In this document: in pieces, positions 3,481 through 59,300 of the stretch | Numbering within the stretch: position 1 is the stretch's first letter | Layout of the letters: each line of letters begins with the position of its first letter | Assembly: GCA_050247355.1 (NCBI GenBank) | Contig: JBFWUK010000010.1 | Span: 4,751-68,750 of the forward strand | DNA length: 64,000 nt | Reading direction: 5' to 3' | Source: Vicinamibacterales bacterium | GTDB taxonomy: Bacteria > Acidobacteriota > Vicinamibacteria > Vicinamibacterales > UBA2999 | Position numbers and translations under genes: made by a program | Notes under the pieces: generated by a model | The model's input: the letters and a program-made list of their open reading frames with translations, nothing else | Database searches by the model: none | Told to the model about the DNA's origin: nothing

Positions 3481-3560
3481 GGCAATGTCCGGCTGAAGCC
3501 GGACGCCACATGGCGATGGTCCGGCTGAAGCCGGACGCCACATGGCAATGTCCCGGCGCA
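3481..3560 (+). repeat. REP-like hairpin element: two tandem direct copies plus a partial third (unit about 31-32 bp, core GTCCGGCTGAAGCCGGACGCCACATGG)
   Basis: Copies at about 3488-3514 and 3519-3546. Core hairpin is TCCGGCT-GA-AGCCGGA. The same element recurs at 13086-13147 and, inverted, at 56528-56634. Confidence 0.85.
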
Positions 3561-13085: not shown

Positions 13086-13147
13086 GGTCCGGCTGAAGCC
13101 GGACGCCACATGGGCAGTACGGATGTGGAGTCCGCTTCAGGCGGACC
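13086..13147. repeat. REP-like element: one consensus copy (13086-13113) plus an inverted diverged copy (13123-13147) forming a long imperfect palindrome
   Basis: GGTCCGGCTGAAGCCGGACGCCACATGG, an 11-nt gap, then ATGTGGAGTCCGCTTCAGGCGGACC. The diverged copy keeps its stem through paired G:C to C:G changes. Confidence 0.85.
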
Positions 13148-20653: not shown

Positions 20654-21529
20654 GTGGTGACGTTCGCCACCAACCCGCTCGCCACGCCGACGCCGCACTT
20701 CGACGACGTGCGGCTGCCGAACGGCATTCGCTTGCACTTCGCGCAGCAGGGGCCCAGCACCGGGCCGGCGCTCCTGCTGCTGCACGGCTACACCGACTCG
20801 TGGTTCTCGTTCAGCCGCGTGCTGCCGCTGTTCCGTCCGGAACAGCGGGTCGTGGTACCCGACCTGCGCGGTCACGGCGACTCGAGCCGGCCCTCCTTCG
20901 CCAGGGCTACGGAGGGTGAACCTCCGGTCGCAGAACCGGGCACGGGCGATCCGGCGGCCGGCTACCGCGTGACCGATCTGGCCGAGGATGTGCTGCATTT
21001 GATGCAGGCGTTGCGCATTCCGAGCGCCGTGGTGCTGGGGCACTCGATGGGTTCGTTCGTCGCCCGGCGGGTGGCGGCGCTGGCCGAGGCGCGCGTGCCG
21101 AAGCTGATCCTGATGGGGGCCGGGCCGACCTTCGACACCCCGGTCGCGCGCGAGCTGAAGGTGGCGGTCGATGCGCTGACCGATCCGGTCGACGCGGAGT
21201 TCGTCCGCGAGTTCCAGGCCAGCACCGTCTTCCAGGACCTGCAGCCGGCCTTCATGGAAGCGGTGATTGCCAACAGCCGCCGCATGCCCGCGGCGGTCTG
21301 GCAGGCGCTGCTGAATGGCCAGATCGATGACGACCCGCCGGTTGGCCTGCAGTGCCGCACGCTGGTGCTGGGCGGGCGGCAGGACCGGATCTTCGCGCCG
21401 GCCGAGCAGAGCGTGCTGGCCAGGCAGTTCCCGCGCGGCGAACTGGAACTGGTGGACGGCGTTGGCCACGCGCTGCACTGGGAAAGCCCGGCCCGCTTCA
21501 TCAGCGCCCTGGCGCGGTTCGGCGTTTGA
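20654..21529 (+). CDS. Alpha/beta-fold hydrolase
   Basis: LLLLHGYTDS, nucleophile elbow GHSMGS, and a C-terminal GHALHWE histidine motif. GTG start directly after the upstream TAG. Confidence 0.85.
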   Translation: MVTFATNPLATPTPHFDDVRLPNGIRLHFAQQGPSTGPALLLLHGYTDSWFSFSRVLPLFRPEQRVVVPDLRGHGDSSRPSFARATEGEPPVAEPGTGDPAAGYRVTDLAEDVLHLMQALRIPSAVVLGHSMGSFVARRVAALAEARVPKLILMGAGPTFDTPVARELKVAVDALTDPVDAEFVREFQASTVFQDLQPAFMEAVIANSRRMPAAVWQALLNGQIDDDPPVGLQCRTLVLGGRQDRIFAPAEQSVLARQFPRGELELVDGVGHALHWESPARFISALARFGV

Positions 21530-55557: not shown

Positions 55558-55558
<1 letters not shown>

Positions 55559-57378
55559 TGCTGAAGCTGTTCCGGTTGATCCGGCCGCTCCGCGCCATGG
55601 TGGCCGTGGTGATGGTGCTGTCGCTGGCCCAGTCGCTGGCCAACCTCTACCTGCCGCGCCTGATGGCCGACATCGTGGACTTCGGCATCGTGCCGGGTGA
55701 CACGCCGGCGATCCTCAGGATTGGCGGCCTGATGCTGCTGGTCGCCGTCGTCGGCACCATCTCGGCGGTCGCCGGCAGCTATGCCGCCGCCAGGGTGGCC
55801 ACCGGCTTCGGCCGTATCGTCCGCGGCCGCATTTTCGAGCGGGTCGCGCATTTCTCGCTGCACCAGTTCGACCAGTTCAGCACCGCGTCGTTGATCACGC
55901 GCACCACCAACGACACCACCCAGGTGCAGCAGGTGCTGCTGATGCTGCTGACCATGGCCATCTCGGCGCCGATGATGGCGATTGGCGGCGTCACGCTGTC
56001 GCTGTCGCAAGACGCGCGGCTGGCGACCGTGCTGATTGCCGTGATCCCGGTGCTGGCCGCCGTCTTCTTCGCCATCATGTGGAAGGCGGTGCCGTTGTTC
56101 CAGCAAATGCAGGCGAAGATCGACCGGCTGAACCTGGTGCTGGACGAAGGCCTGTCGGGGGTCCGCGTGATCCGCGCGTTCGACCGCGGCGCCGACCAGA
56201 GCCGGCGCTTCGACGCCGCCAACCACGACGTGACGGCCACCGCGATCCACGTCAACCGGCTGATGGCGCTGCTGATGCCGGCGATGTTCTTCATGATGAA
56301 CCTGACCAGCCTGCTGATTCTCTGGTTCGGCGCCGCGCGCATCGAGGCCGTCGAGATGCACGTGGGCGCGATGATGGCGTCGCTGCAGTACGCCATCCAG
56401 ATCCTGTTCGCGGTGTTCATGGTGACGGCGGTGGTGGTGATGCTGCCGCGGGCGGCGGCGTCGGCCGAGCGCATCAACGCCGTGCTCGACGTGATTCCCG
56501 ACGTCGTGGACCCGGCTCAGCCCACCGCTGTGGCGTCCGGCGACGATGTGGCGTCCGGCTTCAGCCGGACCCAAGGGGAGGTCGAAACCAATGTGGCGTC
56601 CAGCACCAATGTGGCGTCCGGCTTTGGCCGGACCAAAGGTCAGGTCGAATTCCAGGACGTGACCTTCCAGTATCCCGGCGCCGAGGAACCCGCGTTGTGC
56701 GAGGTGTCGTTCACGGCGCAGGCGGGGGAGATCACCGCCATCATCGGCGGCACGGGCTCGGGCAAGTCGACGCTGGCCGGGCTGATCCCACGCTTCTACG
56801 ACGTCAACCACGGCCGGGTGCTGGTGGACGGCGTCGATGTCCGTGACATGCCGCAAGCGGAACTGCGCGGCCGCATTGGCTACGTGCCGCAGAAGACCGT
56901 GCTGTTCTCGGGCACGGTGGCCAGCAACATTCGTTTTGGAGACGATGCGGCGAGCGACGGCGAGATGCGGCACGCCGCCGCCGTGGCGCAGGCGGCGGAA
57001 TTCATCGATCAGCTGCCGCAGGGCTACGACTCGCCGGTGTCGCAAGGCGGCACCAACCTGTCTGGCGGCCAGCGGCAGCGGCTGGCCATCGCGCGGGCTC
57101 TGGTGCGGCGAACCGAGATCTACGTGTTCGACGACAGCTTCTCGGCGCTCGACTTCGCCACCGACGCCCGGCTGCGGGCGGCGCTCAGGGCGGATCTGAG
57201 CGAGGCCACCGTCTTCATCGTGTCGCAGCGCATCGGCACGGTGATGGACGCCGATCGTATTGTCGTGCTCGACGATGGGCGGGTGGCGGGCATTGGCCGG
57301 CACGCGGAGCTGATGGCGAGCTGCGAGGTGTATCGCGAGATCGCCGAGTCGCAGGCGTCGGCCGAGGAGGTGGCATGA
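55558..57378 (+). CDS. ABC exporter, fused permease/ATPase half-transporter (first of a heterodimer pair)
   Basis: Six-TM domain, then GGTGSGKST, LSGGQRQRLAIARAL and YVFDDSFSALD. The TMD-NBD linker carries an extra segment derived from the REP-like repeat. Confidence 0.9.
56528..56634 (-). repeat. REP-like element copies (two full, two partial, inverted orientation) embedded in frame in the ABC exporter coding sequence
   Basis: ATGTGGCGTCCGGCTTCAGCCGGACC (56546-56571) is the exact reverse complement of the intergenic consensus. ATGTGGCGTCCGGCTTTGGCCGGACC lies at 56609-56634. Partial copies start at about 56528 and 56591. They encode VASG...VASGFSRTQG...VASS...VASGFGRTKG. Confidence 0.85.
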
Positions 57379-59300
57379 GCGCCGAGCGCACGGCCGCGCG
57401 GCCGCCGTCGGCGGCGGCCAACATGTTCGGTCGCGGCCCGATGGGCGCCCTCGGCATGCCGGCGCAGAAGGCGCGCGACTTCAAGGGCACCCTCCGCCGC
57501 CTGCTGGGCTATCTCGCGCCCCGTCGATCGGCGTTGATCGTGGTGCTGGCGGCCGGCGCCGTCTCGACGCTGTTCAGCGTGGTCGGTCCCAAGCTGATGG
57601 GCATGGTGACGACGAAGATCTTCGAGGGCTACCTGGGGCGGACGGCCGGCCAGCCGGGGGCCGGCATCGACTTCGCCTACGTCGCCACCATCCTGTGGAC
57701 GCTGCTGGCGCTGTTCGCGATCAGCGCGGCGTTCCAGTACCTGCAGCAATACCTGATGTCGAGCGTCGCGCAGCAGACCGTCTACGCGCTGCGCCGCGAC
57801 GTCGAGGCCAAGTTCAGCCGCATGCCGCTGCGGTTCTTCGACTCGAAGACCCACGGCGAGATCCTGAGCCGCGCCGTCAACGACCTCGACAACATCAGCA
57901 GCACGCTGCAGCAGAACCTGACGCAGCTCATCACCTCGCTGCTGACCGTGATCGGCATCGTCATCATGATGCTGACCATCAGCTGGGTGCTGACCATCGT
58001 GGTGGTGATGTCGCTGCCGCTGAGCATGACGATCGTGACGGCGATTGCCCGGCGGTCGCAGGCGTTTTTCGTGCGCCAGCAGAAGGCGCTGGGCGAGCTC
58101 AACGGCCACGTCGCCGAGATGTACGCGGGCCACGCCATCGTCACCGCCTATGGCCACGAGGCGCAGTCGGTGGCGAAGTTCAACGACCTGAACGAGAAGT
58201 ACTACGAGGGCGCCTGGCGCGCGCAGTTCGCCACCGGCGTCATGTTCCCGATCATCATGTTCGTCGGCAACCTGGGGTACGTCGCCGTTGCCGTGATTGG
58301 CGGCTACCTGGTCACGCGTGGGTCGATCGCGCTGGGCGACGTGCAGGCGTTCATCCAGTACAGCCGCAACTTCTCGATGCCGATCACCCAGTTGAGCAGC
58401 ATCGCCAGCACCGTCCAGTTGACGGTGGCCTCGGCCGAGCGGGTGTTCGAGCTGCTGGACGAAGACGAGGAGCCGGCCGAGGCGGCGGCGGCCGCGCCGG
58501 CCGACCCGCGCGGCGCGGTCGAGTTCGATCGCGTCTCGTTCAGCTACCGCCCCGGCGTGCCGCTGATCGAGGACATGACCTTGTCGGTCGCCCCTGGCCA
58601 GATGGTGGCCATCGTCGGGCCGACCGGAGCGGGCAAGACGACGGTAGTCAACCTGCTGATGCGGTTTTACGACGTCGATGCCGGCGCGATCCGGGTGGAC
58701 GGCGTGGACATTCGCGAGATGAGCCGTGGCGGCCTCCGCCGGATGTTCGGCATGGTGCTGCAGGACACCTGGCTGTTCTCGGGCACCATCCGCGACAACA
58801 TCGCCTATGGCCGCGACGGCGCCGGCGGCGCCGGCGGCGCCGAAGACGGCGCCGGGGACGACGCCGGAGACGACGCCGTGGTACGGGCGGCCAAGGCGGC
58901 CCAGGCCGATCACTTCATCCGCACGCTGCCCGACAACTACGGAACGCGGATCAACGAAGAGGCGTCGAACCTGTCGCAAGGGCAGAAGCAGCTGCTGACC
59001 ATTGCCCGGGCGTTCCTGGCCGACCCGGCCATCCTGATTCTGGACGAGGCCACCAGCAGCGTCGATACCCGCACCGAGGCCCTGATTCAGCAGGCGATGA
59101 GCCGGCTGATGCGCGGCCGCACCACGTTCGTGATTGCGCACCGCCTGTCGACCATCCGCGACGCCGACGTCATCCTGATGATGGAGCGCGGCCGCATTGT
59201 CGAAAAAGGCACGCACAAGGAATTGCTGGCGGCCGGCGGTCCATACGCCGCCCTTTATGAGAGTCAGTTCGCCGGCAGGATCGGGTCCGTAGGGGCGTGA
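57375..59300 (+). CDS. ABC exporter, fused permease/ATPase half-transporter (second of the pair)
   Basis: ATGA overlap with the first gene. GPTGAGKTT, LSQGQKQLLTIARAF and LILDEATSSVD. Gly/Ala/Asp-rich insertion at about 58810-58880. Confidence 0.9.
   Translation: MSAERTAARPPSAAANMFGRGPMGALGMPAQKARDFKGTLRRLLGYLAPRRSALIVVLAAGAVSTLFSVVGPKLMGMVTTKIFEGYLGRTAGQPGAGIDFAYVATILWTLLALFAISAAFQYLQQYLMSSVAQQTVYALRRDVEAKFSRMPLRFFDSKTHGEILSRAVNDLDNISSTLQQNLTQLITSLLTVIGIVIMMLTISWVLTIVVVMSLPLSMTIVTAIARRSQAFFVRQQKALGELNGHVAEMYAGHAIVTAYGHEAQSVAKFNDLNEKYYEGAWRAQFATGVMFPIIMFVGNLGYVAVAVIGGYLVTRGSIALGDVQAFIQYSRNFSMPITQLSSIASTVQLTVASAERVFELLDEDEEPAEAAAAAPADPRGAVEFDRVSFSYRPGVPLIEDMTLSVAPGQMVAIVGPTGAGKTTVVNLLMRFYDVDAGAIRVDGVDIREMSRGGLRRMFGMVLQDTWLFSGTIRDNIAYGRDGAGGAGGAEDGAGDDAGDDAVVRAAKAAQADHFIRTLPDNYGTRINEEASNLSQGQKQLLTIARAFLADPAILILDEATSSVDTRTEALIQQAMSRLMRGRTTFVIAHRLSTIRDADVILMMERGRIVEKGTHKELLAAGGPYAALYESQFAGRIGSVGA

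Follow-up and report, generated by a model that had tools for sequence, protein, structure and literature searches.

Repetitive extragenic palindromes (REPs) are not confined to the spaces between genes. Di Nocera, De Gregorio & Rocco (2013, PMC3733652) described intragenic members of the GTAG/CGTC-tagged superfamilies, and the passages of that paper that deal with them name O. terrae and R. conorii as the hosts in which they are most abundant. According to the same passages a minority of REPs lie wholly inside open reading frames (ORFs), where they add ~9-30 extra residues, the argument being that these fall in flexible linkers or loops. These passages also cite Ogata et al. 2000 for the Rickettsia palindromic elements (RPEs), selfish palindromic inserts that are read in frame. 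A further group, the REP/REPIN-RAYT systems, comprises E. coli REP/BIME with RayT and the Pseudomonas REPINs, the latter being described as extragenic (PMC3333891, PMC8049555). Here we analysed a REP-type hairpin repeat that is translated in frame within an ATP-binding cassette (ABC) exporter gene of a Vicinamibacterales bacterium (Acidobacteriota). The gene lies in a stretch of 64,000 nucleotides of contig JBFWUK010000010.1 (GCA_050247355.1, positions 4,751 to 68,750 of the forward strand), which we call the window and to which coordinates refer unless a locus is named. REPs inside genes were already known; what is new at this locus is a complete allelic series together with a hot spot used by several repeat families at one linker, and not a new mechanism. 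With good confidence we regard the repeat as a selfish REP-type passenger, neutral or nearly so, that is tolerated in a permissive linker and has not been exapted. This upholds the core proposal of a first-pass annotation made from the sequence alone, namely that the linker between the transmembrane domain (TMD) and the nucleotide-binding domain (NBD) of the exporter tolerates a REP-like hairpin element in frame.

The repeat unit, (A/G)ATGTGG(C/T)GTCCGGCTT(C/T)AGCCGGACC, is 27 nt long and spells nine codons, N/D-VASGFSRT. Its 26-nt core ATGTGGCGTCCGGCTTCAGCCGGACC was found exactly at 56546-56571 (+) and, as had been annotated, as the exact reverse complement of intergenic repeats, at 3518-3543 (-) and 13086-13111 (-). 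Near-copies lie at 3486-3511 (-), with one mismatch, and at 56609-56634 (+), with two mismatches that both fall in the loop, while a search of 100 dinucleotide-preserving shuffles for the 26-nt string gave no match. In the linker, the second full copy and the two partial copies reported in the first-pass annotation were all located. From 5' to 3' on the + strand these are a partial head, TGTGGCGTCCGGC (56529-56541), consisting of the head and left arm without the right arm; full copy 1, GATGTGGCGTCCGGCTTCAGCCGGACC (56545-56571), whose nine codons read DVASGFSRT, which has a 7-bp stem and a 4-nt loop and matches the intergenic copies exactly; a second partial head, AATGTGGCGTCCAGC (56590-56604), again head plus left arm; and full copy 2, AATGTGGCGTCCGGCTTTGGCCGGACC (56608-56634), which encodes NVASGFGRT and carries the loop TTTG. 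The 606-aa frame (55558-57378) runs uninterrupted across all of them, so the claim of an open ORF also stands.

The whole linker block is a codon-aligned 63-nt tandem duplication, a feature that goes beyond the earlier description. Unit 1 (56524-56586, +) encodes TAVASGDDVASGFSRTQGEVE and unit 2 (56587-56649, +) encodes TNVASSTNVASGFGRTKGQVE, the final codons of which lead into the conserved VEF of the NBD. The two units are 83% identical (17.5% diverged), and nine of their 11 differences are nonsynonymous. Orthologues and other genes show the same head-plus-full layout, for the most part at a period of 18 nt. Two landfill-metagenome runs, assembled with different software but possibly from the source sample, yielded Logan contigs that match the window over 56200-56686 and 56250-56686, free of differences and gaps. 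The two-unit structure is not an assembly artefact, and the assembly error that the first-pass annotation had named as a possible undoing of its proposal is contradicted.

The host gene (55558-57378, +) encodes subunit 1, a TM287-like half-transporter of 606 aa with Pfam matches to ABC_membrane (residues 16-285) and ABC_tran (382-528), and its stop codon overlaps the start of the paralogous partner gene (57375-59300, +), which encodes the 641-aa subunit 2, with a linker that holds no REP. Read from the sequence, the Walker B motif is degenerate in subunit 1 (VFDDS) and canonical in subunit 2 (LDEAT), so the REP sits in the subunit with the degenerate ATP site. Both Pfam domains, the adjacent partner for a heterodimer and the single degenerate ATP site identify the pair as a type IV (B-family) heterodimeric ABC exporter, and the order OYE reductase - ABC1 - ABC2 - aminotransferase was kept in all orthologue loci fetched. 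The best PDB relatives of subunit 1 were 8wcw_A (E = 8e-157) and TM287, 3qf4_A (E = 3e-128). Subunit 1 is like the TM287/288 heterodimeric exporters (3qf4; closest solved 8wcw) in fold, in domain order and in being the subunit with the degenerate ATP site, but the HMMER alignment to 8wcw_A and 3qf4_A splits at query residues 327-360. These 34 residues, which coincide exactly with the repeat-derived stretch, have no counterpart in the solved proteins. They lie between the end of transmembrane helix 6 (TM6; ...ASAERINAVLDV) and NBD strand 1 (G-x-VEF-x-x-V-x-F-x-Y). AlphaFold2, given 33 aligned sequences, produced a model of low quality (mean pLDDT 46.6, pTM 0.31), which served only to mark residues 310-362 as coil. 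Measured against 575-aa orthologues without a REP, the linker insert amounts to 31 aa. The insertion that had been annotated is thus real, while its size, estimated at 25-30 aa from the paralogue, is corrected. The rest of subunit 1 is highly conserved, with a mean column identity of 82%.

To place the repeat among known families we scanned one genome per GTDB species with the pattern GTCCGGCTRAAGCCGGACRCCACAT. This returned at least 80 loci, nearly all in metagenome-assembled genomes of Acidobacteriota / Vicinamibacterales, with several genomes holding many loci. In the fetched loci 66 of 86 exact copies lay outside long ORFs rich in G/C at third codon positions (GC3), which agrees with the annotated picture of a dispersed, REP-like intergenic element: many near-identical copies, chiefly between genes. 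Comparison of the 83 copies with full flanks gave a conserved block of 27 nt, (A/G)ATGTGG(C/T)GTCCGGCTT(C/T)AGCCGGAC-C, bordered by unconserved sequence. The unit is a short imperfect palindrome with a stable stem-loop (7-bp stem, 4-nt loop), its DNA folding at -8.1 to -10 kcal/mol (z -2.9 to -4.05 against shuffles), and intergenic and intragenic copies fold alike; full copy 1 (56545-56571) reaches -10 kcal/mol (z -4.05) and full copy 2 (56608-56634) -8.7 kcal/mol (z -2.9).

The repeat also forms doublets of the BIME/REPIN kind. The window holds three REP copies between genes. Two make up a tandem pair on the - strand (3486-3543; copies 3486-3511 and 3518-3543, spacing 32 nt), and the third belongs to an inverted pair (13086-13147), in which the REP at 13086-13111 (-) faces a diverged sister at 13123-13147 (+). 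This sister copy, ATGTGGAGTCCGCTTCAGGCGGACC, has both stem arms altered, GTCCGC/GCGGAC against GTCCGGC/GCCGGAC. Elsewhere, L032 and L070 hold arrays, and L059, L042 and L082 hold inverted pairs. Among the 83 copies with full flanks tandem arrays were frequent, and a frequent opposite partner was a sister family in the same genomes, GTCCGCCTGAAGGCGGAC-GCTACA, which carries the classical GTAG tag. The head of the repeat itself is ATGTGG(C/T)G, with the tag GTGG. Going by its sequence, we class the repeat as REP-type, a one-base variant relative of the GTAG-tagged superfamily and not a strict member of it. The MITE alternative (a miniature inverted-repeat transposable element of 70-300 bp with terminal inverted repeats and a target-site duplication) was rejected, the unit being a single 27-nt hairpin and the empty-versus-filled pair described below showing no target duplication.

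Like the REP/REPIN-RAYT systems, the family has hairpins with a conserved head, forms doublets that are tandem or inverted, and populates a genome with near-identical copies. Unlike them, it has no RAYT gene tied to it in the small sample searched with E. coli RayT (tblastn, ~0.98 Mb plus the window). RPEs are ~100-150 bp long and AT-rich, occur in an obligate intracellular alphaproteobacterium and are largely fixed between species. The unit described here, 27 nt long, GC-rich and with visible population-level turnover, is set apart from RPEs by this description. What the two share, following the account of RPEs in the relevant passages of PMC3733652, is an insert that stays in frame and leaves the gene functional, RPE inserts being placed on the protein surface or in linkers. 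The GTAG/CGTC REPs as characterised in those passages come closest: they too are short (20-40 bp) GC-rich stem-loops with a conserved head, dispersed, mostly intergenic and found in pairs or arrays. The present repeat differs from them in its head, ATGTGG (GTGG), and in its host phylum, Acidobacteriota. Moreover, at least two families recolonise one codon-scale site here, with 0-, 1- and 2-copy alleles in near-identical genes, and the passages of PMC3733652 on intragenic copies do not describe such a case.

Next we compared the linker among the 120 best orthologues (77-92% identity), in which the TM6-NBD linker was the only length-variable region. The commonest form, present in all deep branches, is 575 aa long and repeat-free, ...DPAQPR(T/G)AG(A/P)xRGxVEF, and more distant orthologues (~72% identity) are also 575 aa long. 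Since this form is both the commonest and the one kept in distant orthologues, the empty linker is ancestral. The empty form in the deepest orthologues, together with at least 80 loci in which the repeat stands in unrelated contexts, bears out the direction from repeat to gene that had been annotated. Filled orthologues contain one to three (N/D)V(A/V)SGFSRT units, or extra 18-nt heads as in NVASGV-NVASGV-DVASGFSRT, while others keep remnants such as VASGTKG and VASRTKG. In a compound form a second palindrome is nested in the REP loop, giving VASGF-LTAEASAKVV-SRT. We also noted this compound form, CCGGCTTC-TTGACCGCCGAAGCCTCGGCGAAGGTGGT-TAGCCGG, at L007:1132-1160 and L100:2598-2629 and at an unrelated locus, L055:1392-1420, which would mean that the compound is mobile as a whole or else that the second element targets REP loops.

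In deeper lineages the same linker site is occupied by a second dispersed palindrome, TTCGCCAAGGCTACGGAGGGCAAGCC (SFAKATEGKP), in both orientations, and further copies of this family were found at other places in the loci collected and within the window. Independent colonisation of the linker by at least two families and in two orientations is therefore certain. When the linker is masked, the tree of the 120 orthologues requires 13 changes of the REP label, at least 10 of them forced by well-supported branches, and 11 independently assembled orthologue loci carry in-frame variants of the same architecture. That the site is a recurrent hot spot is a second feature absent from the first-pass annotation. 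Two further observations concern this site and the second family. An orthologue of 580 aa (P0117), within a near-identical REP-free clade, has the linker AQPRIDRWHGRLAARSL, with a 5-residue insertion at the same place. In the window a copy of the second family, TTCGCCAGGGCTACGGAGGGTGAACC (20891-20922, within the ORF 20654-21529, +), is translated in frame as PSFARATEGEP inside an alpha/beta-hydrolase, right after GHGDS, and the Abhydrolase_1 match there spans 127 residues for 111 profile positions.

Turnover was most plainly visible in four genes that are 98.4-99.4% identical in DNA and carry four different linker alleles. The linker of L089 is empty (GGCGCC GCCCGG GGCCTG); L090 has one unit, with 30 nt in place of 6 nt (net +24) and both flanks otherwise equal to those of the empty allele; L008 has two units with DTPDL between them; and L091 reads AQPTD-VASGFSRT-MGK. 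A single ancient insertion followed by simple inheritance was ruled out by the conserved empty alleles in all deep branches and by the 0-, 1- and 2-copy alleles in ~99%-identical genes.

The relatives of the window gene itself are equally varied. Its closest relative, L004 (94% nucleotide identity), has a single decayed copy, CATGCGGCGTCCGGCACCACCCGGACC, in a protein of 579 aa, and this copy folds no better than shuffles (z -0.3). L005 (93% amino acid identity) has one head-plus-full unit and 585 aa, and in L003 and P0009 9-nt in-frame deletions have removed one hairpin arm. Third-position divergence of the window gene is 14% to L004 and 23% to L005. Set beside the 17.5% that separates the two 63-nt units, these values suggest that the duplication is about as old as the L004 and L005 splits, and that L004 later lost a unit, if the linker drifts neutrally; alternatively, the two units may derive from two alleles.

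If the repeat is a tolerated passenger, as we favour, the original copy would have arrived by insertion or short-patch recombination, and the mobilising enzyme, by analogy, would be a RAYT-type HUH transposase. Local expansion had two steps, an 18-nt duplication of the head and left arm and then the 63-nt tandem duplication of the whole unit, bringing the extra residues to 31. Several properties may account for the tolerance of the insert: its orientation and frame are free of stops, its third codon positions are 100% G/C like the native codons, and the resulting peptide, N/D-VASGFSRT, is small, flexible and polar. The linker, an unstructured connector from TM6 to NBD strand 1, is the only length-tolerant part of the gene. 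Repeats there would be gained, multiplied, exchanged, decayed and lost quickly, with staying in frame as the sole constraint. The recurrent hits would then reflect one permissive spot bracketed by highly conserved DNA, which could anchor recombination between alleles.

Several observations weigh against this account. Neutrality is argued from turnover, and selection acting on the DNA or RNA itself is another possible source of the frame bias and synonymous-site conservation of the repeat. A tblastn search with E. coli RayT of ~0.98 Mb of collected acidobacterial loci and the window, a small sample searched with a distant query, gave nothing better than E = 0.17, and thus no transposase. The cleanest empty-versus-filled pair, L089/L090, is not a clean insertion, as 6 nt are replaced by 30. 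In addition, junction flanks are common to lineages that are ~18% diverged in DNA, an example being the AT-rich ATGGGAAAA 3' of the REP in L007, L008 and L091, and part of the changes on the tree are probably cassette exchange instead of new insertions. The DTPDL spacer is likewise common to P0021 and P0033, and L091 shows a cluster of private single-nucleotide polymorphisms immediately upstream of the linker. A long imported tract linking L091/L008 to L007 was sought and not seen, each side showing 17-22 differences per 100 nt. From these patterns we infer that short-patch cassette exchange, of ~50-80 nt if it occurred and anchored in the conserved DNA flanking the linker, may have operated besides new insertions, for which L090 is the best candidate. 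In favour of the account, third codon positions of the REP agree at 7-8 of 8 sites between lineages whose background third-position identity is 63-77%, as expected if the copies arrived recently or were converted from a conserved pool in the genome.

Repeated use of one site could instead mean that repeats are directed to it, a mobilising enzyme (RAYT-like or other) recognising the linker sequence or hairpin and aiming repeats at this codon position. The right junction, SRT-x-G-x-VEF, is indeed nearly constant in most REP alleles; the second family shares its left junction, DP/SFAKA... (the slash marking the junction), in lineages 72-78% identical to the window protein; and the empty site is GC-rich, with the palindrome GCCCGGGC and a CGCCCGG akin to the REP left arm CGTCCGG. 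However, the left junctions of the REP alleles differ (AQPRTAGA/N, AQPT/D, DPL/N, AEGVK/V), the flanks of dispersed copies hold no conserved target, and the site is used by two unrelated families, one of them in both orientations. Allele exchange can account for the shared junctions, and a survivor filter suffices to explain the clustering when the remaining protein has a mean column identity of 82%. Active targeting is not needed to explain the data, and we consider it unlikely. Reversal of the direction, with the intergenic repeats derived from a native low-complexity linker, or an error of assembly, is barely credible. Metagenome assemblies can collapse or chimerise repeats, but as an explanation this is a logical possibility only, and it is at odds with the spread of the repeat over many genomes and unrelated contexts (at least 80 loci), with its absence from the deepest orthologues, with the exact reproduction of the window by contigs of two runs, and with the in-frame variants in the 11 independently assembled loci.

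The first-pass annotation had also entertained exaptation and an effect of mRNA structure on translation. On that proposal the hairpins or the peptide would be functional, for example as a ribosome-pausing mRNA structure between the domains, through protection from RNases, or by a linker length that tunes TMD-NBD coupling. Some repeat is kept in the linker in many lineages, REP third codon positions exceed background conservation, shuffling of the 156-nt mRNA segment gives an equally good fold in 7 of 200 cases (z -2.1, a modest difference), and both full copies retain intact 7-bp stems. The last point had been put forward as hairpin preservation, and it is true that in the copy at 56609-56634 the loop has changed from TTCA to TTTG with the stem unchanged; as an argument it is weak, because an unchanged stem is all that is seen and a single step separates TTTG from the common loop variant TTTA. 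Hairpin conservation as a sign of function was thus discarded, unchanged stems being uninformative when relatives without the hairpin exist. Indeed, the decayed remnant in L004, which has lost its fold, and the arm-deleted remnants in L003 and P0009 indicate that the hairpin is dispensable. Genes that are ~99% identical carry 0, 1 or 2 copies, nine of the 11 differences between the units change an amino acid, and an Rfam search of 56300-56900 matched no family. Close relatives differ freely in how many copies they carry, in the spacer peptides, in whether the hairpin is intact and even in the repeat family. No role is indicated, the proposed action of mRNA structure on translation is unsupported, and we judge exaptation quite improbable. 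A selfish passenger tolerated in the linker remains our preferred reading.

The exporter is not the only gene with a translated copy. In the fetched loci 20 of the 86 exact copies (~23%) lay well inside long ORFs with coding-type GC3, and at least 11 of the 86 (13%) were securely translated. The Pfam-confirmed hosts are an MFS central loop (L015, L071), MeaB (L052, L079), a beta-lactamase-NamZ interdomain linker (L042, L059), PurL (L044), PriA (L082), the MacB periplasmic domain (L046) and Ser/Thr kinases (L073, L075). Among the 20 coding copies, 13 were read as VASGFSRT, four as VRLKPDAT, two as MW(R/C)PASAG and one as GPAEAGHH. Five of the six frames of the unit are open and the sixth has a TGA. 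Third positions, read from the sequence, are G/C at 8 of 8 sites in the VASGFSRT frame, at 7 of 8 in the VRLKPDAT frame and at 4 of 8 in the other two open frames, and the frame that most frequently survives resembles native codon usage in a genome of 67% GC. In the MeaB GTPase orthologues (L052:3671-4717 and L079:5360-6349) the REP stands at the same position with differing head counts, ENVASGSSSNAASGSLPNVASRSSPN-VASGFSRT against EN-VASGFSRT, and this looks like a second linker-type hot spot. At L085:5574-7571 (-) an amidohydrolase may start at the ATG of the REP head (ATGTGGCGTCCGGC...), in which case MWRPASAGL would lead directly into the signal-peptide-like LLSVALACSAPQ.

The nine-codon block, the five open frames out of six and the 13 of 20 coding copies in the 8/8-GC3 frame that yields a flexible polar peptide raise a further idea, one that is tentative and rather doubtful: that the repeat family is adapted to intragenic survival and that permissive linkers flanked by ultra-conserved DNA serve as shared 'landing pads', making coding DNA a niche and not the scene of occasional accidents. 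If so, several families would place cassettes there, which would multiply and pass between lineages and so produce protein-length polymorphism at the population level.

As it stands, the locus offers a clean natural case of selfish hairpin repeats lengthening proteins, in which one gene family displays every stage, from the empty site through a single copy, head duplication, tandem duplication and nested insertion to decay and arm deletion. Translation of a sizeable minority of Vicinamibacterales REPs bears on gene calling and on how the odd peptides 'VASGFSRT', 'VRLKPDAT' and 'SFAKATEGKP' of metagenomic proteins are to be interpreted. In this exporter family the connector between TM6 and the NBD tolerates insertions of at least 30 residues, which could be useful for tagging. 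Finally, subunit 2 has a length change of its own: at 58821-58862, in its NBD, a 42-nt in-frame expansion of GC-rich tandem repeats with 9-nt and 12-nt periods adds the 14 residues AGGAGGAEDGAGDD, and this expansion is private to the window, being missing from all five aligned orthologues, the closest relative included.

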